Of a stretch of 64,000 bases of DNA, positions 303 to 51,846 are shown piece after piece. Every line of letters begins with the position of its first letter. The first letter of the stretch is position 1. The translations under genes were made by a program, and so were the position numbers. Source of the DNA: Gammaproteobacteria bacterium (GTDB taxonomy: Bacteria; Pseudomonadota; Gammaproteobacteria; QZLD01); assembly GCA_033852135.1 (NCBI GenBank), contig JAWSVB010000014.1, positions 2,963-66,962 of the forward strand, read 5' to 3'. The notes under the pieces are model-generated. The model did not search any database. It worked only from the letters and a program-made list of their open reading frames with translations, and was not told the DNA's origin.

Positions 303-304
303 AG

Positions 305-3507: not shown

Positions 3508-3510
3508 ATA

Positions 3511-5085: not shown

Positions 5086-5230
5086 TTAGGAAAAATGCCT
5101 ATAAATCATTTGATTAACAGTGGTTGTTTCATTGACCGCCGGAATATATCGTAGTAGCATGTCACAAAATAATAACTAGCGCGTTAAATTTCATAAGCGC
5201 AATAATAAAGCTACAACGAGACCCATTTTT

Positions 5231-6550: not shown

Positions 6551-6705
6551 TAACTCAGCTCCTGCTTGTTCTGATTCATTATTTCAAATAAGCACTATTC
6601 ATCAACTAAACAGTAATTATTTATAAAATCCAGTTGCAGTACTCACTTTGATTGTCCATTATTCCTACTAAGGTAATTACCTTGAAATCAAATTTAGGAA
6701 TTAAA

Positions 6706-7524: not shown

Positions 7525-7577
7525 GCATTAGGTATTAAGCACTAGGCATTAGGCATAAATCGATATGGAGCATTAAT

Positions 7578-8036: not shown

Positions 8037-8059
8037 CAATAGATGATTAGCGTTATAAG

Positions 8060-9661: not shown

Positions 9662-9668
9662 ATTAAAT

Positions 9669-10085
9669 CTAAACATCACTCGGATGAAAAATCTTATCTA
9701 AAGATAATCTACCCGGACCAACAAGAATCAACCCCAAGAAGAGCACAGCAGCTTCAAGCGCGTGGGAGAACTTCATAAATGGGTCGCCTAAACCAATATG
9801 CATAGCAGTGGCAACCGCCATAGTGCAAAAGAGGAAGAAGCAAGCTGGACGCATTAATAACCCAAGGATTAAAAACAGCCCGCCAGCAAATTCAGAAATT
9901 GCAGCCATAAAGCCAAAAAATGTATGGAAAAAATCGATTCCGATAAATGATATAGCACCACCAAGATTAACCCAAAGCTCGGGGCCACCAGATAGTTTGG
10001 GGAATCCATGCAGCATAAATGCAGCACCAATCCCAATCCGAATAATTAACAGCCCAATATCCCTGTGAGTTTTATCTGCAAACAT
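9669..10085 (-). CDS. DoxX family membrane protein
   Basis: Four TM segments and the HG(F)PKL DoxX signature. Confidence 0.75.
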   Translation of the reverse strand: MFADKTHRDIGLLIIRIGIGAAFMLHGFPKLSGGPELWVNLGGAISFIGIDFFHTFFGFMAAISEFAGGLFLILGLLMRPACFFLFCTMAVATAMHIGLGDPFMKFSHALEAAVLFLGLILVGPGRLSLDKIFHPSDV

Positions 10086-10167
10086 TATCCATTGCTCCGT
10101 AGCTATATTTGTCCGTATTAATATTTAATATAGAACGGGTTGCAAAAAATGCAATAAAAATGGGTGT

Positions 10168-12309
10168 TTAGCTGCTTTTAATCGCTGATAGAGGAAGGTG
10201 TATAAAGATACAAACACCAGTTTCATCCGCCAGGTTTTCAGCATAAACATGCCCCTGGTGGTATTTGCAAATTAACTCAACAATATAAAGGCCAAGACCT
10301 AGGTGGTTAGAGTTTTCGATGTTGTTACGCATTGAAACCATAGGGGAGAAAATCTCAGAGACATTCTCTGGTAAAATAGTTTTCCCTTGGTTCTCGATGG
10401 ATAAAACTGCATAGCCGTTATCTTGTTGCAGCTGTACCTTGATTGGGGTGCCAGCGGTATGAAAGTCTGCCGCATTACCAAAAACTTTATCAAGCATCTG
10501 CGCAAATAGATCTTTATTACCAACGATATGAATATCTTTTTTAGATAAACAGCTCTCAATAGTTATCGACTCAAAGCAGGATTGATAACCCTCGCAATAT
10601 GACTTGAGTAATTCCTTAATATCTATGATATCGCTTGGAGCCGATTCCAGAGTTTTTTCCAATCTGGTTGCCTCACTCATAGCCGATAGCATCTGTCTTA
10701 ATCTATGCGCGCCATCGGTTGCTCGCTGGTGATAAACCTTAATGTCCTCGGGCACCTCACACATAGATATATTATCTAGCGATGAGCTCACAATCGCCAA
10801 TGGGGTTTTAAGCTCATGCGATAGTCTGCCAGACATATTCTCAAGATAGTTTGTATATTGTGAAACGCGGTCAATCATATTAGAAAAGTTATGCGCCAGG
10901 TCGGTAATCTCATCGTTAGCATCATCTTCAAATGGCATGTCACTAATAATTCTGCCATCTTTGGATATTGAGTTATTGGTATAGCGCTGCAAGCGGAGAA
11001 TCTTGCGTGAGATGTGGGTAGTAAGATAAATCAATACACTTAAAGTCAGCAAAAAGGCCAAAATTGATATATCAATTATCCTTTCCATCGCTTCATTATG
11101 CAGTGAGAGAATCTTATTGCTGGTCTTCTCTGCGATTACCGCACCAATAACACCACCGTCTTTTTTTACTGGGTAAGCTGCAGAGAGGATAACCGCGCGA
11201 TTATCTGGGGTAGGGTGCCATGATTGAAAAGGTGTTCCAGTTAAAGCCTTCTTGCTACTAATATCGGAGATGTGGCTGCTTCCATACTGAGTATCGGCAA
11301 AGTTTGATGTTGGCTGCTTCAAAATAAAGCGATAGATAGATTTTCTCATCGTGGTCAAAGTTGACTCTTTCTCACTGCTAATATCACCATTCTTGATGTT
11401 ATCTATCGCCGCTAAAACCGTACCGTTAGTATTGATTGCCCAGTAACGTAGACCATCCTGATTAAAGTCAGAGATAGCCTTTTGCAAAGGGATAGATGGG
11501 GACGATATTGAATAAGATTCTGCCGATGATTTTTCACTAGTTGTTTTTATCCCGTTGGTTTCTACGAAAGCATCGAATAAGGAGATTGAGATATTGTGCG
11601 GAATAAGTGATTTAGGTATTTTAAGCTCAAGGTTGTAGCCATTATTACTCTCTTCCCAGTAACCATTAATCCGTGGTTCATTAATAGTCTGCTCACCATT
11701 TTCACCCGTTAAAATCCGCGCAAAAACCTTACCTGGAGCAGCAGTGTAAAACATATAACTGGTTGAGCTATTCGCCCCTGTTGCGGTGATTAATACACTG
11801 TCATGAAACTTGGAGAAACTAGGGTTAAAATAGCGAATATCGCTATCTACCACTTTTATAAATAGATAGTAATATCTGCTGTCCGTAGTTAAAAAAGTAT
11901 CAGCGAAAACCTTATCTTCCCCAATAGCATTACCAGTAACACCTGGAGTTTCATTAGCCAAAATGGAGAATGCAGGTTTAATATGATTCGGCCATTCATC
12001 AAAATAACCATCTAAAAGTGGTTTAAAATTGATTGGGTAAGCGTATATCGATTTACCATTGGTTGCTTGCTGTGAAGTTAGAAAATCTTCTGCTTGATTA
12101 CTTAAAACAGTTGCAGCTAAACGGGAATAGTTAGTAAGCAAACTTTGCTCGTTATCGCGCAAAAACTGTTCTAAATTCTTAACAAAAGAGTAACCAATTA
12201 AAGGGATACAAAAGGGGATAATTAGTAATAAAAAAAGCTTAGCCCGAAGAGAGATCCTCGGTCTATATTTTTTAGTTTGTATTCTAGGCGGTTTTACTCC
12301 GACTTCCAT
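10168..12309 (-). CDS. sensor histidine kinase with large periplasmic domain
   Basis: Two TM segments flank a ~400-aa periplasmic domain, followed by H-box LSHELKTPLA and an ATPase domain (GLGLYIV). 16-nt overlap with the response regulator gene upstream. Confidence 0.8.
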   Translation of the reverse strand: MEVGVKPPRIQTKKYRPRISLRAKLFLLLIIPFCIPLIGYSFVKNLEQFLRDNEQSLLTNYSRLAATVLSNQAEDFLTSQQATNGKSIYAYPINFKPLLDGYFDEWPNHIKPAFSILANETPGVTGNAIGEDKVFADTFLTTDSRYYYLFIKVVDSDIRYFNPSFSKFHDSVLITATGANSSTSYMFYTAAPGKVFARILTGENGEQTINEPRINGYWEESNNGYNLELKIPKSLIPHNISISLFDAFVETNGIKTTSEKSSAESYSISSPSIPLQKAISDFNQDGLRYWAINTNGTVLAAIDNIKNGDISSEKESTLTTMRKSIYRFILKQPTSNFADTQYGSSHISDISSKKALTGTPFQSWHPTPDNRAVILSAAYPVKKDGGVIGAVIAEKTSNKILSLHNEAMERIIDISILAFLLTLSVLIYLTTHISRKILRLQRYTNNSISKDGRIISDMPFEDDANDEITDLAHNFSNMIDRVSQYTNYLENMSGRLSHELKTPLAIVSSSLDNISMCEVPEDIKVYHQRATDGAHRLRQMLSAMSEATRLEKTLESAPSDIIDIKELLKSYCEGYQSCFESITIESCLSKKDIHIVGNKDLFAQMLDKVFGNAADFHTAGTPIKVQLQQDNGYAVLSIENQGKTILPENVSEIFSPMVSMRNNIENSNHLGLGLYIVELICKYHQGHVYAENLADETGVCIFIHLPLSAIKSS

Positions 12310-12986
12310 CGGTATCCCATACCGTAAACGGTCTCAACCATATCAAATTCAGAGTCATTCACAGCAAACTTCTTCCTAATCCTTTTGATATGCGAGGTAA
12401 TAGTATTATCGTCTACAAAAATATTCGCGTCTTTCATTAACTGTTCACGGCTTTTAACATGCCCTGGGCGCTTAGCAATGGTATACACCATCCAAAACTC
12501 AGTAACCGTAAGGTCAACAAGGTTGCCTTTCCACTTAATAAACATACGGCTGTTATCAATCTCAAGGTCACCATGCGCAATTAACTGCTCTTTCTGTGTA
12601 GGTTGTTTTAAAGCCTCCATGCGGCGGAAGATAGCTGCAATACGGGCAGAAAGGTGGGGCAGGCTAATATCCTTAGTCAAATAATCATCGGCGCCAAGGC
12701 GCAAGCCAGATATAAGGTCAAAATCACTATCGCGCGCAGTCAAAAAGATAATCGGAACAGTAGAATCAATCGCACGAATATCGCGGCACAGGTCGAATCC
12801 ACCCTCAATCTCATCTCCAAGGCCAATATCAAGCAAAATCAAATCTGGCAGAATATTCTCCAGCGCTTTCCATGCTTCAGGACGAGATGCATAAGTCTTA
12901 ACGCTATACCCCTGTTTAGAAAGCATATCCGAGTAGTTATCACTAATCGCTTTCTCATCTTCAACTATTGCAATTGTCTTAGCCAT
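12294..12986 (-). CDS. OmpR-family winged-helix response regulator
   Basis: Receiver (IVEDE...LLDIGL...FLTA...K) plus a C-terminal trans_reg_C domain (YGMGYRW). Confidence 0.85.
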   Translation of the reverse strand: MAKTIAIVEDEKAISDNYSDMLSKQGYSVKTYASRPEAWKALENILPDLILLDIGLGDEIEGGFDLCRDIRAIDSTVPIIFLTARDSDFDLISGLRLGADDYLTKDISLPHLSARIAAIFRRMEALKQPTQKEQLIAHGDLEIDNSRMFIKWKGNLVDLTVTEFWMVYTIAKRPGHVKSREQLMKDANIFVDDNTITSHIKRIRKKFAVNDSEFDMVETVYGMGYRWKSE

Positions 12987-13030
12987 TAAGTCCTGCCATT
13001 AAACCCTATCATTAAAGCTTGTCATTAAAC
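12983..13030. promoter_or_regulatory. four tandem ~13-bp direct repeats (C)CATTAAA(c/g) abutting the response regulator start codon
   Basis: Copies at 12983, 12997, 13010 and 13023 with 13-14 bp periodicity. Located in the divergent RR/ompA-like intergenic region and partly resembles Pho-box half-sites (TGTCAT). Confidence 0.3.
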
Positions 13031-13166
13031 CTTGCCATGGTTCTTTGCCATTTTATTGCCACATTTAATCGGTGGATCTACATCATCTCTCAATCTCCAC
13101 GACATCTCAAGTTGATTTAATAACTCTTGAAATATGAACAAAACATCGAGTCCAAAGGAGAATGAA

Positions 13167-14021
13167 ATGAAAATAACTACCACTAAAACCAGCATACTTA
13201 AAACAGCAATCGCAGCTAGCGCAATCGCAGGGTCAATCGCAGCAACACCGGCATTTGCCGAGATATCAATTCAAGATCTAGAGCACGCTAATCTAGCGCC
13301 ATATGAGAATACCTCAAATGTACCTACAGTAACCTCATTATCCGGTATGGGAGTGGGAGCAGTTATTGGTGGAATCTTCGGTGGGCCAGCTGGGGCAATA
13401 ATCGGTGGTGTAGGCGGGTTGGCAGTAGCAGATAACGAGCACAACAGTCAGGCACTTGCCCAAGCGAACATAAAAGCTCAAGAGGTTGAGTCACAACTAC
13501 AAGTAGCTCAGCTAGAGCTGAAAAATGCCAAGATGATACTCAAAGAGCAAGAGGAGCGCCAAAGCATACAATTAGCATCTTTGCAAAACGATATAATGCA
13601 CCGCGAAGCTACAACTGTAAAAACCAATGAAACCATGAGCGCGATATCAAATGGATTCACTATGGCAGTACAGTTTCGTAGTGACAGCTTCAAAATTGAG
13701 CAGCACTATAAAAAACAGTTAACGAAACTAGCCAGCTCATTAAATACCCTAAGTAAGATAGAGGTAGAGTTAAGCGGTTTCACCGACCCACGCGGCAACA
13801 CAATCTCCAACTTAGAGCTATCCAGAAAAAGGGTAGAAGAGGTTAAAAAAGTATTGGTGAATGCTGGAGTAGCGAAAGAGAGAATCACTGCATCATCATT
13901 AGGTGAAGGTGAGCTAATGTGCACCATGGAAGATACCAAGGGCTACCAATTTGAGAGAAGGGTAGAGATATCATTTCGATTTTTAACAGAAGAGGGAGGT
14001 GGCAGAATAGCGCAAAATTAA
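13167..14021 (+). CDS. OmpA-like domain protein with N-terminal glycine-zipper and coiled-coil regions
   Basis: Signal peptide, GxxxG zipper (GAVIGGIFGGPAGAIIGGVGG), and a C-terminal OmpA_C-like motif (FTDPRGNTISNLELSRKRVEEV). The start is placed at the ATG with an AAGGAG RBS. Confidence 0.65.
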   Translation: MKITTTKTSILKTAIAASAIAGSIAATPAFAEISIQDLEHANLAPYENTSNVPTVTSLSGMGVGAVIGGIFGGPAGAIIGGVGGLAVADNEHNSQALAQANIKAQEVESQLQVAQLELKNAKMILKEQEERQSIQLASLQNDIMHREATTVKTNETMSAISNGFTMAVQFRSDSFKIEQHYKKQLTKLASSLNTLSKIEVELSGFTDPRGNTISNLELSRKRVEEVKKVLVNAGVAKERITASSLGEGELMCTMEDTKGYQFERRVEISFRFLTEEGGGRIAQN

Positions 14022-17611: not shown

Positions 17612-18139
17612 ATGGTTAATCTTTATGAAACACCAGATGCTAAATTAATAAATAGTAATTTTTCTCAAGATAGCTACATTAATTTTGATAGGTTTAGCAC
17701 ATGGGGGGTATTGGGCTTGTCTATCATAACTTTATCTTTTTACATGATTTATTGGATATATAAAAGGACATTGATATTGAATAAGCAGCCAGGAGTTACT
17801 CCAATTGGTGGTATGTTTATGGTGGTTGCTATTGTCTTATATATATTATCTTTTTTATTCATTATACCTGAAGCAATGTATCCATTGTCCCCAGAAGTAG
17901 TGCTTGTATCTCAGTTGGTTTCAATTTTCTCAAATATATTATTTTTAGTTTGGGCGTTTAAGTATAAAAACCGGTTGAATATTGTTTTGGATAATAGGGG
18001 GATTTCAATCAATCCTGTCAGCTCGATTATGACATTTTTTTTCCATGTTATATATTTGTCATATAAAACTAATGAGTATATGGATTGTTCAAATCATCAC
18101 ACTACTTCTATACAACCCATTGTTGAACCAGCTTCGTAG
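17612..18139 (+). CDS. hypothetical membrane protein
   Basis: Multiple TM helices; no motif recognised. Confidence 0.4.
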   Translation: MVNLYETPDAKLINSNFSQDSYINFDRFSTWGVLGLSIITLSFYMIYWIYKRTLILNKQPGVTPIGGMFMVVAIVLYILSFLFIIPEAMYPLSPEVVLVSQLVSIFSNILFLVWAFKYKNRLNIVLDNRGISINPVSSIMTFFFHVIYLSYKTNEYMDCSNHHTTSIQPIVEPAS

Positions 18140-18249
18140 ATTGGAATCAATGAGTCATTCAATAGGGTCATAGTTTTTGATTTGGTTGATAGGTACCGGT
18201 GGTTGTATTATTTTAATCGACTACCAGATCCTATTTTATTCTTCAGATA

Positions 18250-18305
18250 ATAAGTATCTAGTAAGAGGTAATTGTTCAAAGTATATGGATGTTCATAATT
18301 AATTC
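18250..18305. repeat. intergenic repeat family copy R2 (right-hand part only)
   Basis: caaagtatatggatgttcataattaatt matches the right end of R1 and R5. Confidence 0.4.
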
Positions 18306-18504
18306 CACTTTATTTAATTACTCGCTCGATATGCAAGCCACATATTATTCTTGATGTGACGTTGTCAGCTTTGTTTACATATTTTGTCCTAGTCACTTGT
18401 GAAAAAACTTTTTTATTTTAAAAAATAACACTATATGTTTTATGGCTTTATTTTTGCTTAAGAACTGGCGGACATTTTATAAATTTTACTCTAGGACATA
18501 AATA

Positions 18505-19110
18505 ATGAAAAAAATAGTTATTTTAGCTTTATTGCTATCTGTAGGAACTGCTAATGCAGGAATTATTGAATTAGGTGATTTTTCTGGCTCAGAAACAGTA
18601 ATTGATTTTAATGCTATATCTAATACAGAATCTGTTGCTAACCAATATTCTATTGATGGGGTTTTATTTAGTGGTGCGTTACTGGGGATGACAAATTCTG
18701 GCGATACAGCACTATTTAATGGCAGTACAATTGCTTCAAACTGGAACTACTCAGGTGGTGGCAATACTGGGCAAAGCTGGTCTGCAACTTTTGATTCAGT
18801 TCAAAACATTTTTGGTTTTTTCTCGGAAACTAATTCTAGCGATGATGTAACTATCGAAGCCTATTTGGGGACAGCATTAATTGGTACAGTAAATTTCTTG
18901 AACCCTAATGGCACATATCCAGATTTTCTTGGCTTTGGTGACTCTGGTGGCTTTGATAGTATTACAGTTACAATTGCAAAAAATGCTAACGGTTTTTTCG
19001 CAATGGATGATTTAAGATTTGAAAGTTTAAGAATACCTGAGCCAGGTTCTCTTGCTTTGCTTTGTTTAGGGATAGCAGGTGTTGGATTTTCAAGAAAAAA
19101 AATTGCTTAA
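18505..19110 (+). CDS. PEP-CTERM sorting-domain secreted protein (exosortase substrate)
   Basis: Signal peptide and C-terminal PEPGSLALLCLGIAGVGFSRKK (PEP motif, TM helix, basic tail). Confidence 0.75.
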   Translation: MKKIVILALLLSVGTANAGIIELGDFSGSETVIDFNAISNTESVANQYSIDGVLFSGALLGMTNSGDTALFNGSTIASNWNYSGGGNTGQSWSATFDSVQNIFGFFSETNSSDDVTIEAYLGTALIGTVNFLNPNGTYPDFLGFGDSGGFDSITVTIAKNANGFFAMDDLRFESLRIPEPGSLALLCLGIAGVGFSRKKIA

Positions 19111-19129
19111 TTAAAAATTAATCTACTTA

Positions 19130-19158
19130 AAAACCTCGGTGTTATACGGGGTTTTTTT
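19130..19158 (+). terminator. rho-independent terminator after the PEP-CTERM gene
   Basis: aaaaCCTCG-gtgttata-CGGGG followed by a T7 run. Confidence 0.55.
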
Positions 19159-19205
19159 GTGCCTGATAAAAATTATACTAGGGTATAAATAGATGGAGAG
19201 TAATT

Positions 19206-19610
19206 GTGAAATTTAGTGGGGTTGGTGTCTTTAAACATAAATTTAATAATCCAAATAAAATTACACAATTTGAAGAGCGTGTTGTTATGACTGAAGCCTC
19301 TTCATACGAAAAAGCATAAGAGCTTATTCTTGAGAATTTTAATGAATATGCAACTGATGCTGTTGAGTTTCTACATGTATATGAAATTGAAGAGATATAT
19401 CCAGAAAGTGAGGCGGTAATTGAAGTTGCGAGCGCAATGAAGGTTTTTGCAGGAACAGATGATGAATATATTGAAAGGTATTGGGGCGATCAAAAACCAT
19501 TAACATGTGAATCAAAAGGTTGGAAACACGTATGGTTTAATAGAGGCGAAGGCAAAAGCGGTTGTTATAATTGCCAAGAGGAACGTTTCGGTGAATTATG
19601 GGAGCTATAG
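19206..19610 (+). pseudogene. disrupted ORF (in-frame TAA at 19317-19319); product would be a ~134-aa protein of unknown function
   Basis: Continuous reading frame GTG19206..TAG19610 broken by a single stop. Absent from the ORF track because both pieces are under 60 aa. Confidence 0.35.
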
Positions 19611-23376: not shown

Positions 23377-24570
23377 ATGCCAGTTTATATGGAACTAAAT
23401 AAGGGGGAAGTTCCGGTAAAAATTTACACTGATGAGATTGAATCAGAAGCGATAGATCAACTTATCAAGGTATCTCAATTACCGTTCATTCACTCACATA
23501 TCGCAGCAATGCCTGATGTGCATAGCGGCAAAGGTGCGACGATAGGAAGTATTATCCCAACAAAAGGAGCGATTATACCTGCTGCTGTTGGCGTGGATAT
23601 TGGATGCGGAATGCAGGCTGTTAGGCTTAACATGAAGCGTAAATACCTGCCTAAGAAGCTTGCTAAGTTGCGTGCCTCGATCGAGGATCTTGTACCAATT
23701 GGGTTTACTATGAACCAACCGGGAAATGCGCATAAAAAAGCGTGTAAGGATCTTGATGCAAGGCTAGATGCGATAGTAAAAAAGCACCCAGAATTGATGA
23801 AGATGGTAAAAAATCTTCCGCAAACTTGGGTTTGCCAAATGGGTACCTTAGGTGGTGGTAACCACTTTATAGAGGTGTGTATTGACCAGCAAGATTCAGT
23901 TTGGATTATGCTGCATACAGGGAGTCGCGGCCTTGGTAATGCAATGGGGAGATATTTTATCTCTCTTGCCAAGCGCAATATGCCTGCGGAAGTAAATCTG
24001 CCAAATAAAGATCTAGCTTACTTTACCGAAGGGACAGAGCTTTTTGATGATTATGTTGAGACAGTTTTATGGGCTCAGGATTATGCCAAAACCAATCGAG
24101 ACGTAATTATGCAAGAGGTACTGTCAGCTGTTGATAAGAGCTCATCCTATCACCAATTAAAAAGTAGCATTATTGACTGCCATCATAACTATGTGGCGCA
24201 GGAGACCCACTTTGGTGAAAAGGTTTTTGTTACTCGTAAAGGTGCAATTCGCGCTGCTAAAGGTGAGGTTGGAATTATCCCCGGTAGCATGGGGGCAAAG
24301 TCTTTTATTGTAGAAGGGATAGGCAACGAGGATTCTTTTCAATCATGCTCCCATGGAGCAGGTAGAAAGATGAGCCGTAGTAAGGCAAAAAGGTCTTTCA
24401 CCAAAAAGGATCTTGAAGCACAAACCAAAGGTATTGAATGCCGTAAGGACAAAGATGTTTTAGATGAGATTCCAAGCGCATATAAAAATATCGATTCGGT
24501 GATGAAGAAACAAAGCGACTTGGTTGAAATCAAATACACCTTAAAGCAGGTTATTTGTATTAAAGGGTAA
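23377..24570 (+). CDS. rtcB: RNA-splicing ligase RtcB (3'-phosphate/5'-hydroxyl RNA ligase)
   Basis: Conserved RtcB motifs: DVHSGKG, GGGNHF, HNY..Q, SHGAGR; ~400 aa. Confidence 0.9.
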   Translation: MPVYMELNKGEVPVKIYTDEIESEAIDQLIKVSQLPFIHSHIAAMPDVHSGKGATIGSIIPTKGAIIPAAVGVDIGCGMQAVRLNMKRKYLPKKLAKLRASIEDLVPIGFTMNQPGNAHKKACKDLDARLDAIVKKHPELMKMVKNLPQTWVCQMGTLGGGNHFIEVCIDQQDSVWIMLHTGSRGLGNAMGRYFISLAKRNMPAEVNLPNKDLAYFTEGTELFDDYVETVLWAQDYAKTNRDVIMQEVLSAVDKSSSYHQLKSSIIDCHHNYVAQETHFGEKVFVTRKGAIRAAKGEVGIIPGSMGAKSFIVEGIGNEDSFQSCSHGAGRKMSRSKAKRSFTKKDLEAQTKGIECRKDKDVLDEIPSAYKNIDSVMKKQSDLVEIKYTLKQVICIKG

Positions 24571-27649: not shown

Positions 27650-28753
27650 CTATTTGCAGGCCTGAGCTTCTTGGTTAACTTTATCTAGTATTGCAAAAAC
27701 TTCTAAGCTATTTTCTTCAATTACTTTGAAAGCATTAAATAGAGCAGTGTAATCTAACGGTTTCTTGTCAATTAACTCAAATACGCTGTGTGTGCCGTTA
27801 TGTACAACAGAATGAGGACGATCTAATAATTTAAATGATGGATTAGATGAGAAGAATTCCTTTCCATCCCCTTCAAAATACCATTTGCCCAGGCGGCAAT
27901 TATGATGGTCAACAAAGTCGAAAGCAGGTTTCTTTTTATTTACTGAAAGGTAAGTATTGGTTTTCCAAAGTAAGTGGTCAAGCTTTGCTAAACTCATAAA
28001 TACTGTATCCGATACATTTGCAATATCAGAGAAATGAGCAGCTACTTCTTCATTAATATTTTTTACACCACTTTGCAGATTCTCAGATACTTCGCTTATG
28101 TTAGTAACTGTACTCCACACTGTTTGAGAATCAGTTGATACCGACGAAACATCCCCTTGCATCGCTACAATTACATCATTAGTTTCAGTAATTGCTAACT
28201 GTGTTTTATCTGCAAGCCCACGTACTTCCTCAGCAACTACAGCAAAACCTCTTCCTTGTTCTCCTGCCCTGGCTGCTTCAATTGCCGCATTCAAAGCAAG
28301 TAAATTAGTTTGTTCAGCAATGCCCTTAATCAAGTTAAGAATAGAGCTTATCTCTTCAGCCCTAGCTGACATAGATTCAACTGACTGACTTGATTGCTGG
28401 GCTACCGATTCTAGCCCCTTAAGCCCAGAGCTCATATCAGCGATCTGCTGATTAAGAGAGGTAAAGTCACTTTGAATAGAGCCGATACACTGTAGTATGT
28501 GTTTGGCAGAATTTACTGAATCAGCTAGATTTTGCTGGATATCAGTTAAGCAAATTTTGCTGTTATCATTCTGATATCCCATGAGTTTATTAAGTTGTTC
28601 TTCTTTAGGATTAACTTGGGATAAATTTTGCAGCTGCTGTTTAGTTTTATCCAGTTCATCTTTGAGAGCAGAGTTTTCTGATTTTAGAGTTGAGTTTTCA
28701 TGTTTAAGCTTTTCAAGCTCTATCTTTGTTTTTCCAAAATCAAATAAACTCAT
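27650..28753 (-). CDS. soluble methyl-accepting chemotaxis-like protein with C-terminal CZB (chemoreceptor zinc-binding) domain
   Basis: MCP signalling motif [31 protein letters not shown], then C-terminal [13 protein letters not shown] and HSVVH (H-x3-C-x-L-G-K-W CZB signature). No TM segments. Confidence 0.75.
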
Positions 28754-31261: not shown

Positions 31262-31397
31262 TTTAGATTATTTAAAAAACATCATTGATTTTAGTAACTA
31301 TTTGTTGAGAATATCAGCATTTAATGATATTTTGTTGACTAGTGTTCATTATAGTTTGTCGATTCTATTTATTTAAGTGTTATACCAAGGGATAAAA

Positions 31398-32219
31398 ATG
31401 AAAATTATCACTAGTAAATTTTTATTAACAATTTCTATTATTTTAAGTTTGTTTTTTAGTGTAAACAGCTATGCTGCTCCGATGCTTGATATTGCCATCC
31501 TTATGGATTCAAGCGGAAGTATGGGGAAAAGTGGTTGGGCTAATGAAGAGGACTTCGTCTCAGATTTAATTATATCTGGTATCCCATATGAAGATACTCG
31601 CTTAGGCATCATTCAATTTTCATCAAGTTCGAAAACCAAACAGATTTATGGTTTTGAAAACCAGCAAGATAATAGACAACAAATTTCAGATGTTGTCCAA
31701 GATATGTATTATCGTGGTGGTTCAACATATATGAAAAAAGCCGTAGATACTGCTATTAATCTTTTCGATAACGAAAGTACAGAAGAGAATAGTAAAGCTA
31801 TTATCATGCTTACAGATGGCAACCCTTGGCCTTCTTCTAGTCAAAGTCCATGCGGTAGGGTAGATGATCTTAACGACAGAGGCATAAGTGTTTTTATTGT
31901 TGGCATGGGTAATGGTTGGACCAGAGATAGAATTGACTGCTTGGTTGAAGACTCTTATCTAGATATCATAGCTACAGATAGTACTAGTGCATATGATTTA
32001 GCTACTGCAATGCAACCACTAACAGAAAGGCTTGGTGCAATTAGTGGCGTTCCATTTGCTACTGAAATTGATTGTGTTGAAGGTGGAGCTATATGGGATT
32101 CAAACTCATGTCGCGCTGCTTGGCCGTCTGATGCAGAGCCAGTTAATGAGCCTGCAATATTATTTATGATGCTATTTGGCTTTGGTGGAATGTTCTCACT
32201 ACGCAGATATAAAAAATAA
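31398..32219 (+). CDS. von Willebrand factor A domain protein with C-terminal PEP-CTERM anchor
   Basis: MIDAS motif DSSGS, vWA-like core (MLTDGNP), and C-terminal NEPAILFMMLFGFGGMFSLRRYKK. The start is placed at the ATG with an AAGGGA RBS. Confidence 0.7.
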   Translation: MKIITSKFLLTISIILSLFFSVNSYAAPMLDIAILMDSSGSMGKSGWANEEDFVSDLIISGIPYEDTRLGIIQFSSSSKTKQIYGFENQQDNRQQISDVVQDMYYRGGSTYMKKAVDTAINLFDNESTEENSKAIIMLTDGNPWPSSSQSPCGRVDDLNDRGISVFIVGMGNGWTRDRIDCLVEDSYLDIIATDSTSAYDLATAMQPLTERLGAISGVPFATEIDCVEGGAIWDSNSCRAAWPSDAEPVNEPAILFMMLFGFGGMFSLRRYKK

Positions 32220-34176: not shown

Positions 34177-35334
34177 TTACAAAGCAGCTGTTAATATCTT
34201 CTTAACAGTATCTAAATCCAAATCACGGGTTTCAGATAAAGCTGTCATCCCCATTTTTTCTAAATTAGATACAACTTTATCCACTCCAGTTGTATCAATT
34301 CCGTAATGGGAGAGGTTGGTTATAATGCCAAGTGAATTAAAAAATGCCTCGGTGTTATCGATAGCTTTATCAATTTTATTTTCATCAGAGCCAGTAGTAA
34401 TTCCCCAAACTCTTTCTGCATATTGTAGAAGCTTGGCTTTTTTCTTATCTTTTCTTTCACGCAATAGGTGTGGAAGGATTATTGCCAGAGTTCTTCCGTG
34501 AGCAATACCAAAAAGCGCAGTAATTTCATGTCCAATCATGTGTGTAGACCAATCTTGCGGGACTCCAGTGCCAATAAAACCATTTAATGCACATGTTGCT
34601 GACCACATGAAGTTCTTTCTTGCATCAAGGTTATCATTGTCATTAAAGGTAATTGGTCCATCTTCGATCAATGTTTGTAATATCCCTTCTGATACGCGAT
34701 CTTGGATTTTTGCATTTACAGGGTAGGTGATGTATTGCTCAACCACATGAACAAAGGCATCGGCAACCCCATTGGCAATTTGCTCTTTAGGTAAGCTGTT
34801 GGTTAAGTCAGGATCAAGGAATGAAAATTGTGGGAAACATAGTGGCGACATAAACACAAATTTCTGTTCGTTCATTGTTATAACTCCACCCATGTTCATC
34901 TCTGAACCAGTTGCAGGAAGAGTTGCAACACAGCCTAAAGGGGTTGCTTTTTTTGTTGGGACCCCTTTAAAACCATGCATGAGAATATCTTGTGGGTCAT
35001 TTTCATAATTGATTGCTAGTGAAATAAATTTGGTTCCATCCATCACCGAGCCACCGCCAACAGCTAGCAAGAAGTCGATGTTTTCTGATTTAGCAATTTC
35101 TACAGCTTTTAGTAATGTTTTGATTTGTGGGTTAGGCTCTATACCACCAAACTCAATCACTTCTCGATTACCAAGCGAGCTAGTTACCTTTTCGATAGTT
35201 CCGTACTTTTTTGCGCTGCCACCACCAAAAAGAATCATCACTTTGGCATCTTTTGGAACTAGGCTATCTAGTTTTGCGAGTTTGTTTTGCCCAAAAATAA
35301 TTTGCGTAGGGTTGTAGTAGTTAAAGTCAAACAT
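34177..35334 (-). CDS. iron-containing (group III) alcohol dehydrogenase, YqhD-like
   Basis: GGGSVMDGTKF motif and ~385 aa. Confidence 0.85.
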   Translation of the reverse strand: MFDFNYYNPTQIIFGQNKLAKLDSLVPKDAKVMILFGGGSAKKYGTIEKVTSSLGNREVIEFGGIEPNPQIKTLLKAVEIAKSENIDFLLAVGGGSVMDGTKFISLAINYENDPQDILMHGFKGVPTKKATPLGCVATLPATGSEMNMGGVITMNEQKFVFMSPLCFPQFSFLDPDLTNSLPKEQIANGVADAFVHVVEQYITYPVNAKIQDRVSEGILQTLIEDGPITFNDNDNLDARKNFMWSATCALNGFIGTGVPQDWSTHMIGHEITALFGIAHGRTLAIILPHLLRERKDKKKAKLLQYAERVWGITTGSDENKIDKAIDNTEAFFNSLGIITNLSHYGIDTTGVDKVVSNLEKMGMTALSETRDLDLDTVKKILTAAL

Positions 35335-35435: not shown

Positions 35436-38400
35436 TTATTTTTTCACTACGGTAAATGTTACATGAGTAACCTCTTTATCATTTGTGGTCTCATTCATCC
35501 GAAAACTATATTTTCCAGGTTTTGTTGGTGCTTTAAAAACCATCTGCCCCGAAGCTTTACCGCTAATGCGTTGATAGGTATGGTCATGCTGGTCGTTGCG
35601 ATATGTAGAGCCATGTGCAATTTGTTCTGGGATCAATCCTACCCAGCTATTTTTTGGCAGTAACGGGGATGCTTTAAAGCTAACCGTTATTTTCTCTCCC
35701 GGGGTAAATGTTTGCTTGGAAAGTTGTAACTTATTATCCTGTATAGGAACAGCAACTTCAAAGGCAACAGCTGTTATCTCTTTATCATTGGTAGTTTCAT
35801 TCATACGGAAGCCGTATGTACCGATTTTTCTAGGTGCAGTGAACTCCATCTGTCCCGATGCTTTACCACTAACTCGTTGAAAGGTGTGGTCATGTTGATC
35901 GTTACGGTATGTCGAGCCATGAGCAATTTGCTCTGGTATCAACCCGATCCAACTATTTTTTGGTAGCAGCGGCGATGCCTTAAAATCTAATTTGATCTTC
36001 TCATAAGGTGCATAAACTTTTTTGCTAAGTATTAACTCATTGCCTTCCATTGGTACTGCTACTTCAAAGCTAACTGCTGCTACCTCTTTGTCGTTGGTGG
36101 TCTCGTTCATACGGAAACTGTATGTGCCGATTTTCTTCGGTGCTCGAAATACCATCTGACCTGATTCTTTACCACTAACTCGTTGAAAGGTGTAGTCATG
36201 TTGATCGTTACGATATGTAGATCCGTGAGGAACCTGCTCTGGTATCAATCCTACCCAGCTGTTTTTTGGTAGCAGTTTCGATGCCTTAAAATCTAATTTA
36301 ATATCTTCATTTGGGGCAAAGATTTTCTTAGGGAGTATTAATGCTGCTGTATGATTTGGGACAGATACTGTGAAGGTAATAGATATTAACTCCTTATCAC
36401 CATCACGTGTACTCACCCTTAAATCATAGCTCCCATTGTTCTTTGGCACTTGGAATTTAAATTCCCCCGATGCCTTACCTTTAATCTTTTGAAAGGTTAT
36501 ATCATGTTGATCGTTGCGATATGCGGATCCATGAGCAACATGGCTTGGAATCAAACCTACCCAAGCATTTGCCGGTATTTTTGAAGAGGATAAATTTAGA
36601 CTGATACTTTCCCCAGGGGCATAAAGCGTTTGAGCCAGTTTCAGAGTTGTTCCTTCCTTAGAAACTGTTTGTGGTGGATTTTTTGGTGCTGGTATAACAG
36701 GGGAGCGCAGGTTCGGCGCAGCATATTTTTTATCCGTGGCTTTTCCCTTACCTTGTTTTTGCTGCTCTTCAGCCATCATCTGGCGCGCAAGATCAATGGA
36801 ACCCTGAATATTTTTCCTCCGATTTTGGCTGAGCTCTCTATTTAATGCAGGAAGTGAAATATCCAAAATACCCTGCCAGTTTTTCTCTTTAAAGAGCTTG
36901 GTATTTTGTTGTTCCAAATCTAGGATATAATTGCGGTATTCACGAAATGCCGCATTAAAATCATCAGAAATTCTTTGCAATAGAGGGGAGGACCCACCTC
37001 CTGGAATAGGTGATTGAATTTTTTGCATTTCCAGCAATACTTTTTGGGCAGAAAACGGCTTTTTCTCTGCTACATGCTGGTCAAATAGTGGTACTTTGGC
37101 TTTGGCTCGTGACCACAGTTTCTCAAATGTTTTTAATTTTTTAAGTTTTTCTTGGGTGTCAGCATTTCCTGGAGCTAGCCTACCTGCAACCTCAAGATTC
37201 TCCCTGGCCTTAGAAAAGTCACGTAGATTAACTGCACGCCAGCCACTTTTCTTCGCAGCTTTTGCTACCTCTTTTATCACTGGCGCTGCACTTTTGGGGT
37301 CGTGTTGTTTAGCCTCATTAACGCTCTTTTCTGCAGCTACCATGTCTCCTCTAGCTATCTCATCTCGAGCTTGTTCGATCTTATTCTTTGCTGCTGCTTT
37401 TTTCTGCGGACCTGTTTTAGGATTTTCTGGTTTTTTGTAATTGGCTGGTGGGCTGACTAGTTCAATAACACTGACTGTTACTATTGCCTCCCCCAGTTTA
37501 TTACCGTTTTTATTTTTCGCTGTTACCTTAGCGGTAATTGTTCCTGCGGTGCTTCTGGATACTCTTGGTGTCTGGGAGATATCATTACTGATAGCTGTTC
37601 CCGGGTTAACGGTCCATTTCCAACGCACGCCATCCGGCGTTGTACCACCTTGTAGTTCTGCTTTTAGGGTAATCTGTTCTGCGGTAGCCCGAGTTCCTCT
37701 TTTAATGGTTTTCAAACCTTTTGCTTTTGGATCCCAGGTTCTTGGCAGATTTGGTGGTTGCACCATCCAGGCATTTACGCCATATGTCATTCCGGTATAG
37801 CTGCTAGTTATCTCTGATAACTCATCACCATGGACTGGAACTCTGGCCAATGCTTTAAGTTTTAGTGGGTTTACATCTTTTACTTTAAAGGATATTCGAC
37901 CGCCGTTGCCATCAAGTTCTAAACGGTTAGAGGTAGAAGGGTCAAACCAGCGGTAATCAATTAGTTTGCTTTCTATACCAGGTTTAGCGTGTATGGTGGC
38001 TGTTACTTGCTGCCCGACATAAGCTTTGCCATTAGCTGGTTCATAGCTGATGCTAAAGTTTGGAGCTACCACATTTACAGTGATTTGTTCACTCTCAGCC
38101 ACAGTTTGATAAGCTCCCTCTATAAATTTAAGTAGTTCACACCAAACCTTAACTTCACCCATGCGGTCATAGGTAACTTCGGTAGAAGGATCTGGGCTTT
38201 CACCGGGATCAAATGTCAGTGCTGGTTCAGACTGCCAAACCACCTTGTACTCTTCTATTGGGGGTTGTTCATCATATTCCTCTTCGTCAGGATCTGGCAC
38301 ATAATGCCCCTGATTGGTATCATCAGGAATATCTAGTTTTGGCGGCGGAGTATAAGTAGCAGTGGCATTTGACGAGGTATCTACACAAAAAGGATTATCC

Positions 38401-48599: not shown

Positions 48600-48878
48600 T
48601 TATCTAATCTTTCCTAAATGATCGATTAATTCATCAATAAGCTGGTCTTTAACTCCATCTTCAGCAGTGGCCTTATGGATGCATCCGCGTAAATGATCCC
48701 CAACAATTTGAGTCCAAACTCCGCGAACTGCACCGGATGTAGAAACTACCTGCCGCAGAACATCGATACAGTCACGGTCATCTTCTATCATTCCTCGCAG
48801 CCCTCTGATTTGTCCTTCAATACGGTTAAGGCGCTTAATTAATCGTTCTTTATCTTGGTCAGTTCCGCAAAGAGCCAT
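48600..48878 (-). CDS. CsoR/RcnR/FrmR-family metal-sensing transcriptional repressor
   Basis: RLNRIEGQIRGLRGMIEDDRDCIDVLRQV...GAVRG...HLRGC, with a Cys...His-x3-Cys CsoR-type ligand pattern. The start is placed at MALCG, with GGAGAA 5 nt upstream. Confidence 0.75.
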   Translation of the reverse strand: MALCGTDQDKERLIKRLNRIEGQIRGLRGMIEDDRDCIDVLRQVVSTSGAVRGVWTQIVGDHLRGCIHKATAEDGVKDQLIDELIDHLGKIR

Positions 48879-49427
48879 ATTTTCTCCGATATAGTATATA
48901 GGGGTATACCCTATATTATCCTGTCGATGAATGTCAATTTTTATTCTTATGCCTTTCATGTTAATGAAACAACACTGCATGGAACGTTACAGGTTTATTA
49001 TCAAGCATTATGTGTGAATTGTGTTTAGGGAAACTAGAGTTGCCAACTTCAACAGCCAAGTGATGCTTCTAATATTTGAATGCTGTTTAACAGGTAATCT
49101 GAATTAATTCATGAGGTTTAATCATTGCTTATTTTAGTTTTTCTACGATTACTGCAGAAATAGATCTGGTCAATATAGTTATTGCAAATGTTATGTGCGT
49201 TAGTTATTAATTGGGTGATTTATGGGGATTAGGTTTGGAAAAAGGATTGGTGTGAAGTGGTAAGCTGTTTATTTTAAAGTATTTATTCTGAATTTATCTA
49301 TAATTAGAGGTGAGAAACAAGTATTGTTTGTGCAAATAAGATATAGACAGCTCAAATAAGTTAGGATAACCTAAGTTAAATGCAAATTATGATTTACTAA
49401 GATTAGTAGCGGTTTAAAGGTAAACAA

Positions 49428-49658
49428 ATGAAATTAAGGCAGATGAAAAAAAATCAGTCTGGGAAGATTGTCAGAGTTACTGCGTCAAAGGAAGTTGGCC
49501 GAAGAATCAGGGATATGGGTCTAGTTACTGGAGCTACAATTACTATTGGTAATCGAGCACCGTTGCAAGACCCGGTTGCAATCAAGGTTTCAGGTTGTGT
49601 GATTAGTCTTAGAAACAGCGAAGCTGATTTTATCGAAGTTGAGGTGGGAAATGAGTGA
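49428..49658 (+). CDS. feoA: ferrous iron transport protein A
   Basis: 76-aa FeoA SH3-like domain (GKIVRV...GLVTGATITI). 8-nt overlap with feoB. Confidence 0.8.
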   Translation: MKLRQMKKNQSGKIVRVTASKEVGRRIRDMGLVTGATITIGNRAPLQDPVAIKVSGCVISLRNSEADFIEVEVGNE

Positions 49659-51846
49659 AGTGATAGCGTTAGCTGGTAATCCAAATGCAGGTAAAACCAC
49701 GCTGTTTAATCGATTAACTGGTGCTAATCAACACGTAGCAAATTACCCAGGTGTTACCGTAGAAAAGAAATCTGGTTCTTACAAAATTAATGATACAAAA
49801 TATGAGCTTGTTGACCTTCCTGGTACCTATTCTTTAACTGCTTATTCTATTGAAGAGATTGTAGCGCGAGACTTTATCGCCAAAGAAAAACCGAACGCAT
49901 TAGTAAATGTTGTTGATGCTTCAAATCTTGAAAGAAACCTATCATTTACAGTTCAATTATTAGAGATGGGTGTTCCAGTATGTATTGCGCTTAATATGAT
50001 TGATGATGCCCACCGCAGGGGTATCAAAATTGATTATAAACTCCTATCTGAAAAGCTTGGTGTTCCTGTCACCCCTATAATTGCAAAAAGAGGGCAGGGG
50101 GTTGAAGAGCTAATGAATAAAACTCTTTCAGCTATGGGGACTGGGAGTAAGCCGCTGGAAATCTCTTACGGGATTGATATCGAAGAAGCGATATATAAGA
50201 TGTCCCCACTTATTGAAGAGAAGCATTTCCTTACCAATCTATACACACCGCGTTGGATTGCAATTAAATATCTTGAACAAGATGAACTTATTATTGAGGC
50301 AGGGGATAGAAGGAATAAAGATATATCCACAGCGCTGAAAAAGATTGTTGATGAAGTAACGGTTCATATTGAGGAAACATTAGATACATACCCAGAGGCG
50401 ATTATTGCTGACCAGCGATATGGTTTTATTCGTGCACTTCTAAAACAAGGAGTTTTAACCCGAGCTTTAGATGAAACCCGAGTATTTTTGACCGAGAGAG
50501 TAGATTCAGTCTTGCTGAACAGATTCTTTGGTCCAATCATAATGATTGGGATCATTACAGGTTTGTATTACGCAACATTTACCTTTAGCGAGATACCAGT
50601 TGGCTGGCTGGAAGGGGCTATTGGTTGGCTCTCTGGAGCTGTTGAAGGAGTTCTCCCTGAAGGGATGCTGAAATCCTTGGTTGTGTCAGGAGTTATCGAC
50701 GGTGTTGGTGGCGTCCTAGGTTTTACACCAATTATTATGTTTATGTTCCTTGGGATAGCTATCCTTGAAGATTCTGGCTATTTGGCGCGTATGTCCTTTA
50801 TGCTGGATAGAGTGTTTAGGCTTTTTGGATTGCATGGTAATTCAGTAATGCCGTTTATCGTATCTGGAGGTATTGCTGGTGGCTGTGCTGTACCAGGAGT
50901 AATGGCAGCTAGAACTATTAAATCACCACGGGAAAGATTGGTAACTATTCTAACCGCACCATTTATGAACTGCGGTGCAAAGCTTCCGGTATTTGCTTTA
51001 TTGGTTGCCGCATTCTTCCAGGAGAATGAGGCTACGGTGATGCTTATCATAACACTTGTCTCTTGGGCAGGAGCTTTAGCTGCAGCTAAATTACTTAGAC
51101 TTACAGTGCTTAAAGGGGATGAATCCCCATTTGTGATGGAGCTACCTCCATACAGAATCCCAACTATTCGTGGAGTGCTTTTGCACACATGGGAAAAGGT
51201 TTGGCAATACGTTAAAAAGGCTGGAACAGTTATTCTAGCAATCTCAATTCTTATTTGGGCGATGATGACATTCCCAGGACTTGATGAAGAAAAAGTTAAG
51301 ATCTTTGACAGTCAGAGACAAGCAATTACAGCAACATATGATGCAGCAGTTGTCACAGAGTTAGAAAACGCTGGTGAAGAGGTAGAGCTTTCAGAAGTTG
51401 CTGCTGAACTACGTGAAAAGATTCTTGATGTAGATGCTAATGAAGCTCAGCTAGCATTAAGAAGCTCTATTGCTGGCAGAATCGGAACCGCTATGGAGTC
51501 AGTTACCCAGGTGGCAGGATTTGATTGGAGAACTAATATAGCCTTGGTGTCAGGCTTTGCTGCAAAAGAGGTTCTTGTATCTACTCTTGGTACAGCTTAT
51601 TCACTTGGAGAGGTGGACCCAGAAGATACCGATTCTCTAAGTGATAAATTGGCAAAATCTCCAGCATGGAGTAAGGCAACGGCATGGTCTTTGATTATAT
51701 TCACCATATTCTATGCTCCGTGCTTTGTAACTGTAGTGTGTATTGCCAAAGAGGCTGGTTCTTGGAAGTGGGGGCTATTCTCAGTGGTATTTAATACAAC
51801 TATAGCTTTTGTGCTCTCAACATTGGTCTATCAGCTAATGTTATAA
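49651..51846 (+). CDS. feoB: ferrous iron transport protein B (G-domain + membrane permease)
   Basis: GNPNAGKTTLFN P-loop, DLPG, Gate motifs, ~730 aa. The start is placed at ATG 49651 with GAGGTG SD. Confidence 0.9.
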   Translation: MSEVIALAGNPNAGKTTLFNRLTGANQHVANYPGVTVEKKSGSYKINDTKYELVDLPGTYSLTAYSIEEIVARDFIAKEKPNALVNVVDASNLERNLSFTVQLLEMGVPVCIALNMIDDAHRRGIKIDYKLLSEKLGVPVTPIIAKRGQGVEELMNKTLSAMGTGSKPLEISYGIDIEEAIYKMSPLIEEKHFLTNLYTPRWIAIKYLEQDELIIEAGDRRNKDISTALKKIVDEVTVHIEETLDTYPEAIIADQRYGFIRALLKQGVLTRALDETRVFLTERVDSVLLNRFFGPIIMIGIITGLYYATFTFSEIPVGWLEGAIGWLSGAVEGVLPEGMLKSLVVSGVIDGVGGVLGFTPIIMFMFLGIAILEDSGYLARMSFMLDRVFRLFGLHGNSVMPFIVSGGIAGGCAVPGVMAARTIKSPRERLVTILTAPFMNCGAKLPVFALLVAAFFQENEATVMLIITLVSWAGALAAAKLLRLTVLKGDESPFVMELPPYRIPTIRGVLLHTWEKVWQYVKKAGTVILAISILIWAMMTFPGLDEEKVKIFDSQRQAITATYDAAVVTELENAGEEVELSEVAAELREKILDVDANEAQLALRSSIAGRIGTAMESVTQVAGFDWRTNIALVSGFAAKEVLVSTLGTAYSLGEVDPEDTDSLSDKLAKSPAWSKATAWSLIIFTIFYAPCFVTVVCIAKEAGSWKWGLFSVVFNTTIAFVLSTLVYQLML

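Follow-up and report, generated by a model that had tools for sequence, protein, structure and literature searches.

The stretch of DNA analysed here (the window) comprises 64000 nt of contig JAWSVB010000014.1 (positions 2963–66962, forward strand) from the Gammaproteobacteria bacterium assembly GCA_033852135.1, and carries on its minus strand a giant gene at 35436..42695. This complete coding sequence is one unbroken open reading frame (ORF) of 7.26 kb, encoding 2419 amino acids plus a stop codon, with an ATG start, an AGGAA sequence 7 nt upstream and full-length colinear orthologues in other assemblies. Because the N-terminus of the product shows Arg3, Arg9 and Arg13, a 16-residue hydrophobic core (Kyte–Doolittle peak of 1.78 at residues 8–34) and an A-H-S site before Asp34, and because homologues have an A-x-A site immediately ahead of the same conserved D-[DE]-L-G-E motif, we consider a predicted Sec-type signal peptide (residues 1–33, 42597..42695), with cleavage at approximately residue 33 between A-H-S and Asp34, to be well supported. 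The initial annotation of this locus had described a secreted giant modular protein with a signal peptide, which the intact ORF and the Sec-type N-terminus bear out. The anatomy behind the signal peptide was drawn from AF2 (AlphaFold2) models, conservation and composition; all its parts lie on the minus strand, and they consist of an α/β module A, a long helical region that includes module B, a series of β-rich and immunoglobulin (Ig)-like segments, a lysine-rich linker and a C-terminal repeat array. Giant secreted modular proteins with terminal binding repeats are a known kind, and what is new here is the 1200-residue N-terminal module with its hydrophobic core. For residues 34–1207, neither Pfam nor NCBIfam nor the PDB sequences gave a match, and the fold searches gave nothing significant, in agreement with the earlier description of approx. 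1200 uncharacterized N-terminal residues, and these sequence and fold searches placed the region in no described adhesin or toxin family. For the giant protein as a whole, NCBIfam and PADLOC scans assigned no family, a search of PDB sequences gave no match at E<0.05, and promoter and terminator scans at the gene gave no more sites than in shuffled sequence.

A genome scan yielded 16 related loci (L001–L016), and in three independent assemblies we found full-length colinear orthologues that end in the same terminal repeat unit. One, in a Gammaproteobacteria metagenome-assembled genome (MAG; locus L003) that shares synteny with the window on either flank of the gene, encodes 2546 amino acids with 87% identity; the other two, both with the terminal repeats included, lie in a Desulfatitalea MAG (L014; 67% identity, 1.8-Mb contig, GC content 0.61) and a Sedimentisphaerales MAG (L006; 59% identity, 534-kb contig, GC content 0.55). 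The ORF is real and intact. That the gene is an artefact, whether through repeats collapsed or expanded during assembly or as a pseudogene that arose by frameshift or fusion, is extremely improbable: tandem 306-nt units with 66–77% DNA identity could in principle mis-assemble, and the long-read metagenome homologue L001 is visibly frameshifted, but the frame in the window is uninterrupted over 7.26 kb at a locus syntenic with L003, the three assemblies agree, and the units are too divergent to collapse, each with its own L003 orthologue. L001 is a high-GC metagenome contig (ENA ERZ25039502) with tandem paralogues at 186–8709 and 9057–13968, the first of which is split over several frames, probably through long-read indel errors, and has at its C-terminus a different β-rich domain that is also present in Syntrophus and Geobacter orthologues. 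ORFs of 114–216 amino acids also lie antisense to the giant gene (window 37096–41847, plus strand) and reach 640 amino acids in high-GC homologues. These antisense ORFs, including their counterparts in L001–L016, are best regarded as non-coding shadows; they cluster between loci because the sense strand is conserved.

To judge from the searches, relatives of this protein are few. A word-indexed search of 5.8 billion proteins returned two relatives of the N-terminus, to which a profile rerun added none, and when 1.84 billion cluster representatives were searched exhaustively with a profile, 88 matched at E≤1e-3, 53 of them at E≤1e-30. The full-length members span 2200–3000 amino acids and come from Gammaproteobacteria (Sedimenticola and Chromatiaceae), Desulfobacterota (Syntrophus, including the cultured S. 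buswellii DM-2, Geobacter, Desulfococcus, Desulfatitalea and Syntrophorhabdaceae) and one Planctomycetota MAG; the gene is present twice in two genomes (in tandem in L001, and as L011/L012). In the literature search no paper describing the family turned up, and tblastn of the giant protein against plasmids gave no match. Taken together, the alignments define what appears to be a small, rare and previously undescribed family of giant exported proteins in sediment bacteria. Since orthologues in other phyla are 59–67% identical and lie on long contigs that differ widely in GC content, the comparison indicates probable cross-phylum horizontal transfer of the 7-kb gene; in the window the gene itself has a GC content of 0.42–0.44, higher than that of its flanks (0.33–0.39). 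Beyond the linker that precedes the repeats the orthologues diverge completely and the C-terminal module is exchanged, for long TPR arrays plus an unannotated β-rich domain, for paired domains of approx. 100 amino acids or, in one case, for a C-type lectin.

Module A (residues 34–345, 41661..42596) follows the signal peptide directly in every family member, distant ones included, and contains the motif F-L-A-S-G-S-C-K-P-G-R-D-I-D-L-L-Y-V-G (residues 108–126, 42318..42374), which is predicted to form a strand, a GS loop and a DxD strand. Pol β-like nucleotidyltransferases share the motif hG[GS]-x9-13-Dh[DE]h. The initial annotation had seen a superficial, atypically spaced likeness to this motif in the GS-x5-DID segment (residues 112–121), and of this suggestion the motif itself has gained in weight, while the evidence for the fold is weak. 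Across 14 orthologues the consensus F-x-A-[ST]-G-S-x-x-x-G-R-D-x-D-h-h-Y-x-G is invariant at Gly, Ser, Gly, Arg and both Asp residues; when five members of a distant branch (18–24% identity) are included, Gly112, Ser113, Gly117, Asp119 and Asp121 remain invariant, as do Arg86, Asp154, Asn224, Tyr237, Gly239, Gly242, Gln243, Lys320 and Arg324, and the two GS and two Asp residues are the same in 16 of 16 aligned sequences. In this distant subfamily (P0062, P0063, P0077, P0079 and P0090) the motif reads A-L-G-S-W-A-x-x-L-N-x-G-D-h-D-h-h-V, with the canonical nine residues between GS and DxD, against five in the window's own subfamily. Module A is 37% identical in Desulfobacterota orthologues.

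The AF2 model of module A (predicted local distance difference test score, pLDDT, 77.9; predicted template modelling score, pTM, 0.66) has strands at residues 108–111 and 121–124, in the order long helix, strand, GS loop, strand starting at the DxD, helices and third strand, a topology compatible with a nucleotidyltransferase core. Its weak structural matches were DncV, CdnE, OAS2 and DrrA. Module A resembles the Pol β-like superfamily (the DrrA/SidM AMPylation domain, cGAS/DncV-like enzymes and OAS) in the invariant hG[GS]…DhDh, in the predicted strand–loop–strand after a long helix and in conserved Lys and Arg residues in the helices after the motif. The search for a third catalytic carboxylate gave Asp154, which is invariant but lies at a helix N-cap, and the acidic residues of strand 176–185 (Asp177, Asp182 and Asn/Asp185), none of which keeps to one conserved column. 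No nucleotidyltransferase family model in Pfam or NCBIfam matched the window protein, PADLOC gave no CD-NTase match, and the module A profile found nothing among PDB sequences at E<0.05; among 16 homologues there were single-member matches to MTPAP-like_central (E 0.071) and GlnE (E 0.15). We regard a nucleotidyltransferase-like active site in module A as plausible, and membership of the superfamily as putative.

The remainder of the N-terminal region is almost entirely helical, and the AF2 model of residues 1–1200 reached a pLDDT of 70.7 and a pTM of 0.39 (the alignments comprised 13–16 sequences). Helical region 2 (residues 346–640, 40776..41660) is all-helical and the least conserved part, with 22–29% identity in Desulfobacterota orthologues, against 48–53% in the hydrophobic Gly/Pro-rich helical core (residues 641–800, 40296..40775), the best-conserved segment. 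This core and the long helices of region 3 (residues 801–1207, 39075..40295) make up module B, modelled at residues 640–1200 as all-helical save for a short hairpin at 782–798. The core carries the signatures NAWVTxLPxVGDFAxG and VPGGQxPA (VPGxQxPA across both subfamilies), and its hydropathy peaks of 1.25 (residues 697–717) and 1.52 (residues 725–768) are below typical transmembrane values; AF2 draws it as helices of 15–21 residues with a pLDDT of 34–50. Foldseek with the 1200-residue model against the PDB gave loose helical-bundle matches only and no match at E≤1e-3, and a profile of residues 640–1110 and one of the hydrophobic core from both subfamilies found nothing among PDB sequences at E<0.05. 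The second subfamily, for which counts of approx. 23 and approx. 30 representatives were obtained, shares profile positions ~640–1100 only and has a different N-terminus of approx. 500 amino acids behind the signal peptide; Glu690, Pro703, Val705, Gly706, Asp707, Gly737, Pro743, Gln746, Trp778 and Ser781 are invariant in both subfamilies. The N-terminal approx. 1000 amino acids of subfamily 2 contained no Pfam domain. That the subfamily 2 N-terminus is a relative of module A was considered and dropped (hhalign probability 0.2, no demonstrable relation). In its members (P0025–P0072) this N-terminus, which has no Pfam match, shows a D-x-D and the motifs …kapmD.D.g…, fhpeAy, dVsk.K and A..EaaRGt.KDl, and it may be a second, unrelated effector-type domain.

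Given an exported candidate nucleoside triphosphate (NTP)-using enzyme, a moderately hydrophobic conserved module and candidate binding repeats in one chain, the simplest reading is that of a Sec-exported, toxin-like protein in three parts, effector, membrane-insertion module and binder, and we favour it tentatively, holding it with distinctly less than even confidence. An NTP-requiring enzyme lacks its substrate outside the cytoplasm, the periplasm being without NTPs. On the toxin-like reading, the C-terminal repeats would attach to a ligand exposed by the target, module B would insert its hidden hydrophobic helices into a membrane, and module A would be a nucleotidyltransferase-fold enzyme that acts only after delivery into the cytoplasm of another cell. 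The invariant Gly112-Ser113, Asp119 and Asp121, with Arg86, Lys320, Arg324, Asn224 and Gln243, look like the pattern of an active site and not that of a stalk, and Sec export would be plausible because the core hydropathy, at ≤1.52, stays under the usual transmembrane threshold. The apparent swapping of modules, with the N-terminus exchanged in subfamily 2 and the C-terminus among orthologues, would also speak for a toxin-like protein, as do the two paralogues in some genomes. Against this stand several observations: neither fold nor sequence searches linked the protein significantly to a nucleotidyltransferase or to a toxin translocation domain, the GS–DxD spacing is five residues in the window's subfamily, no conserved third carboxylate was pinned down in the module A alignment, the AF2 confidence for residues 1–1200 is moderate, and no autoprotease, furin-type or disulfide release device was found between modules A and B. 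Moreover, the hosts (sediment anaerobes, syntrophs and sulfur oxidizers) live free and are not known as pathogens, neither an immunity gene nor an outer-membrane secretion system adjoins the gene in the window or the 16 related loci, and the Ig, TPR and lectin-like parts fit an adhesin equally well.

The order of effector, hydrophobic region and binding part is also that of diphtheria toxin and of the large clostridial toxins. The LCT-T translocases have as their conserved fingerprint a hydrophobic region with a conserved PxxG, flanked by variable effectors and binders, and BLAST detects their homology to the TcdB translocase region (Orrell et al. 2020, PMC6978384). TcdA, TcdB and the LCT-T proteins (PMC6978384) are likewise of 2.3–2.7 thousand amino acids, with an enzyme, a central hydrophobic region and C-terminal binding repeats, and the giant protein shares with LCT-T a conserved hydrophobic region between a variable N-terminal part, here a candidate effector, and a variable C-terminal part, here a candidate binder, one small and two larger hydropathy peaks, and a PxxG, here the invariant Pro703-x-x-Gly706. 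We regard this common PxxG as a four-residue coincidence and only a resemblance. Membership of a described toxin family, i.e. a divergent LCT-T translocase, a Tc/ABC toxin, or a MARTX or RTX protein, is very unlikely, since there was no Pfam match at E≤1 to TcdA_TcdB_pore, Peptidase_C80, RTX, Rhs or others, and at E≤10 three family profiles matched no PDB chain of TcdA, TcdB or another toxin. In contrast with the LCT delivery domain, which is mostly β-sheet, a β-scaffold wrapped by helices, module B is all-α in the AF2 models; the giant protein shows no sequence or profile similarity to LCT-T, its N-terminal domain is not a GT-A glycosyltransferase, it has a Sec signal, and its hosts are environmental anaerobes. 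Polymorphic toxins (Rhs, contact-dependent inhibition and type VI secretion systems), which combine Rhs/YD, PAAR or TPS/FHA N-terminal parts with a variable C-terminal toxin domain and a neighbouring immunity gene, are not indicated either, as no Rhs or PAAR match was found in the giant protein, and its variable C-terminal modules are β-sandwich or lectin-like, with no toxin-domain match and no small conserved downstream ORF. Extending the toxin-like reading to the family, its members could be toxins or contact effectors of a new kind, exported by Sec, able to deliver themselves and used by environmental anaerobes and sulfur oxidizers, in which an all-α core translocates exchangeable enzymes and exchangeable binders pick the target, and whose core would be unrelated to the diphtheria, botulinum or clostridial translocation machines; we consider this broader proposal unlikely.

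Behind module B, residues 1208–1313 (38757..39074) form a probable β-sandwich and an acidic/Lys-rich linker (DDDKEDEKEKDKAEEEKPEEPE), with a weak BiPBP_C match at residues 1222–1268, a segment that is kept in the family member P0001 and in L001. The PKD domain that follows (residues 1314–1386, 38538..38756; PF00801) scored 35.8 bits against a gathering cutoff of 23.5 (E 8e-9) and is the sole domain of the giant protein above a curated Pfam threshold, so that the at least one PKD/Ig-like module of the earlier description is confirmed. A further Ig-like β-rich region (residues 1387–1760, 37416..38537), in which orthologues are colinear, has a weak InlK_D3 match at residues 1697–1743, and a PHROGs scan of the protein gave a Hoc-like Ig match and nothing else. 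Residues 1761–2012 (36660..37415) are a Lys/Ala-rich (13.4% Lys, 12.3% Ala) helical TPR-like linker with a weak LapB match, and the counterpart in orthologues shows recognizable TPR repeats; the lysine-rich coiled-coil/TPR-like linker proposed at the outset is supported by this composition.

The protein ends in four repeat units, in which the sequence W[VI]GLIP recurs at a spacing of exactly 102 residues (306 nt), the array occupying residues 2013–2419 (35439..36659). Unit 1 (residues 2013–2114, 36354..36659) is a divergent copy, with approx. 40% protein and 53% DNA identity to the others, and units 2 (residues 2115–2216, 36048..36353), 3 (residues 2217–2318, 35742..36047) and 4 (residues 2319–2419, 35439..35741, the C-terminal unit, which ends …FTVVKK) are 68–77% identical in protein and 66–77% in DNA; Tandem Repeats Finder reported 2.8 copies of a 306-nt period with 76% matches. 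The initial annotation had counted five near-identical units of approx. 105 amino acids, extending from 35439 to 37016 with about 80% identity at the DNA level, which overstated both their number and their likeness, positions 36660–37016 being part of the Lys-rich helical linker. Unit counts are four in the window and L014 and five in L003 and L006, two metagenome orthologues have four and five, and the terminal unit is common to the window, L003, L014 and L006. Between the window and L003, orthologous units (94% identity for unit 2 of each, 83% for window unit 4 and L003 unit 5) exceed the identity of paralogous units within one gene, and because of this the units are not an assembly artefact; the L003 array has one additional internal unit. 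The comparison indicates that the copy number varies naturally through gain and loss of single units, and that each unit is old and conserved in its own right, the divergence among them being too great for assembly collapse, so that of the two liabilities first ascribed to the array, copy-number variation stands and assembly collapse falls away.

Although the repeat had been described as unassignable to a named domain, we would assign it loosely, from profile matches, as a divergent MG2/macroglobulin-type β-sandwich of the cell envelope or exterior. The 102-residue unit gave repeated sub-threshold matches to MG2, bMG6, A2M_BRD and BatD; MG2 (PF01835) scored 20.6 bits on the window protein against a gathering cutoff of 32.8, with a best E of 0.003 for single units, and 33.4–33.7 bits, barely over the cutoff, on related small multi-copy proteins. 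The unit is thus like MG2/bMG domains (PF01835 and PF17962) and BatD in these matches and in its co-occurrence with VWA and OmpA in secreted proteins, but in the giant protein it falls below the cutoff, is marked by an invariant signature peculiar to this family (W-x-G-h-h-P, H-G-S-x3-N-[DN]-x-H-D and G-x-Y-x-h-R) and lacks a thioester or bait region. To our knowledge, this signature is not a feature of MG2. A resemblance to SKICH or NBR1-type domains was considered and dropped, as no tool result supported it. The word-indexed search gave five relatives of the repeat, to which a profile rerun added none, a profile of the repeat had no match among PDB sequences at E<0.05, and a metagenome scan gave 28 loci with the domain, most of which encode it in one to four copies in small proteins (124–640 amino acids) of the signal-peptide or lipoprotein type, in some cases together with VWA or OmpA domains. 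No conserved gene neighbour beyond within-genus synteny was found around 23 repeat-domain loci. The unit defines an unannotated extracytoplasmic domain family, in which the conserved His/Asp/Asn loop might bind a metal or a sugar.

These modules bear on a second explanation, nearly as likely as the toxin-like reading, namely an envelope-anchored giant adhesin or cell-contact protein whose N-terminal 1200 residues would serve, through their hydrophobic helices, as an anchor, its Ig/PKD and TPR parts as a stalk and its swappable C-terminal modules as binders that grip partner cells, mineral or polymer surfaces, as would be useful to aggregate-forming syntrophs, sulfate reducers and sulfur oxidizers. 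Adhesins typically contain modules of the PKD/Ig-like, TPR, MG2-like and C-type-lectin kinds, terminal repeats that vary in copy number are adhesin-like, the MG2-like domain is shared with small secreted envelope proteins that have VWA or OmpA, the host bacteria live free in sediments and in consortia, the examined loci lack an immunity gene, and the helices at residues 697–768 could be membrane-embedded. On the other hand, an anchor leaves unexplained why GS…DxD and the Lys/Arg residues are invariant down to approx. 20% identity; the hydrophobic segments are short helices of 15–16 residues, with Asp, Glu and Lys at invariant positions and a hydropathy under that usual for membrane-spanning segments; no outer-membrane route is encoded nearby; and some subfamily 2 entries of approx. 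1150 amino acids, which may be truncated, have no stalk. RTX adhesins with Ig-like stalks include SiiE, LapA and MpIBP. Set beside such giant bacterial adhesins (PMC5466336), the protein is similarly very large, with Ig/PKD-like modules, C-terminal tandem β-sandwich repeats of ligand-binding type and varying number, and environmental hosts. It differs from them in having an N-terminal Sec signal in place of the C-terminal signal for a type I secretion system (T1SS) and few Ig-like modules rather than dozens; RTX repeats and neighbouring T1SS genes are absent, and a conserved helical module, in which a motif looks catalytic, makes up half of the protein.

In the window, the neighbouring genes encode an Fe-alcohol dehydrogenase, a MATE transporter, chemoreceptors (methyl-accepting chemotaxis proteins, MCP), LysE, RibD_C and a VWA-PEP-CTERM protein, and no T1SS, type V secretion system (T5SS), immunity or chaperone gene is linked to the giant gene in the window. 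In the 16 related loci no T1SS/T5SS, sortase-like or immunity gene adjoins it, and no conserved neighbour beyond within-genus synteny was found around 16–18 family loci. The check for T1SS/T5SS partners that the initial annotation had proposed therefore returned none. T1SS RTX adhesins are marked by RTX nonapeptide repeats, a C-terminal signal and linked ABC, MFP and TolC genes, and T5SS proteins by a TPS domain or a C-terminal β-barrel and a linked TpsB; Pfam showed no domain of these kinds in the giant protein, which has an N-terminal Sec signal instead, and with no linked transporter genes it fits neither group.

A Sec signal with no further secretion system at the examined loci is what would be expected of a third, rather improbable explanation, an enzyme-scaffold resident in the periplasm or at the inner membrane, where a polymer or protein of the envelope would be the substrate of module A and the TPR, Ig and MG2-like parts would organize partners. 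α2-Macroglobulin-like and BatD/VWA systems are comparable bacterial envelope residents, the MG2-like domain stands alongside VWA and OmpA envelope proteins, and the TPR repeats of the orthologues suggest protein–protein scaffolding. However, the periplasm would presumably deprive a nucleotidyltransferase of NTP, no conserved gene neighbours mark a pathway, and the variable lectin-like C-termini and the cross-phylum transfer look more outward-facing. A small share of probability falls to something outside all of these explanations. The earlier view that adhesin and toxin are the candidate roles and that the N-terminal domain is the interesting part holds overall.

The significance of the family lies in some 1200 residues that are 37–53% identical between Gammaproteobacteria and Desulfobacterota, appear to have moved between phyla and have no family, solved relative or fold match. 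If module A were an active nucleotidyltransferase and module B inserted into membranes, the protein would represent a new scaffold for protein delivery whose cargo and targeting parts are exchanged in nature, and would show that syntrophic and sulfur-cycling communities of sediments engage in antagonism or in interactions that depend on contact. If instead the N-terminal region were an adhesin anchor, it would be a new mode of tethering giant surface proteins without a T1SS or T5SS. The cultured host S. buswellii DM-2, in whose complete genome (NZ_CP175563) the gene lies at approx. 257.4–266.4 kb, makes either reading testable.

At the 3′ border of the gene there is a small gene-content indel between the window and L003: in L003 a HipA_C/HTH (helix–turn–helix) toxin–antitoxin-type kinase gene lies directly downstream (17981–19312), and the matching window position (34177–35334) is occupied by the Fe-alcohol dehydrogenase. 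A protein of approx. 300–350 amino acids is encoded directly downstream in L004 (18276–19268), L005 (17429–18316) and L014 (17793–18848), from two phyla; it has no confident Pfam match, is weakly membrane-protein-like and is absent from the window and L003. Elsewhere in the window, a secreted VWA protein (31377–32219, plus strand; tail …VNEPAILFMMLFGFGGMFSLRRYKK) and a secreted protein with no Pfam match (46615–47319, minus strand; …INEPIGLTLILLGFISIALTRSK) carry PEP-CTERM-like sorting tails, which suggests an exosortase system in this organism. A metal-handling cluster beside the giant-gene locus contains a cation-diffusion-facilitator gene (47553–48521, minus strand) whose product has a long His-rich loop (HHGHHHGHGHDHEKHHEHKHDH), a small ORF (48600–48980, minus strand) and feoB (49639–51846, plus strand). 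An RtcB RNA ligase (Pfam E 5e-124) is encoded at 23377–24570 on the plus strand, with no obvious rtcA or rtcR adjoining in the examined stretch. Finally, two proteins with MCP signalling domains and no obvious transmembrane N-terminus (27650–28753, minus strand, and 45015–46535, plus strand) are probably soluble chemoreceptors, one of which carries a CZB zinc-binding domain.

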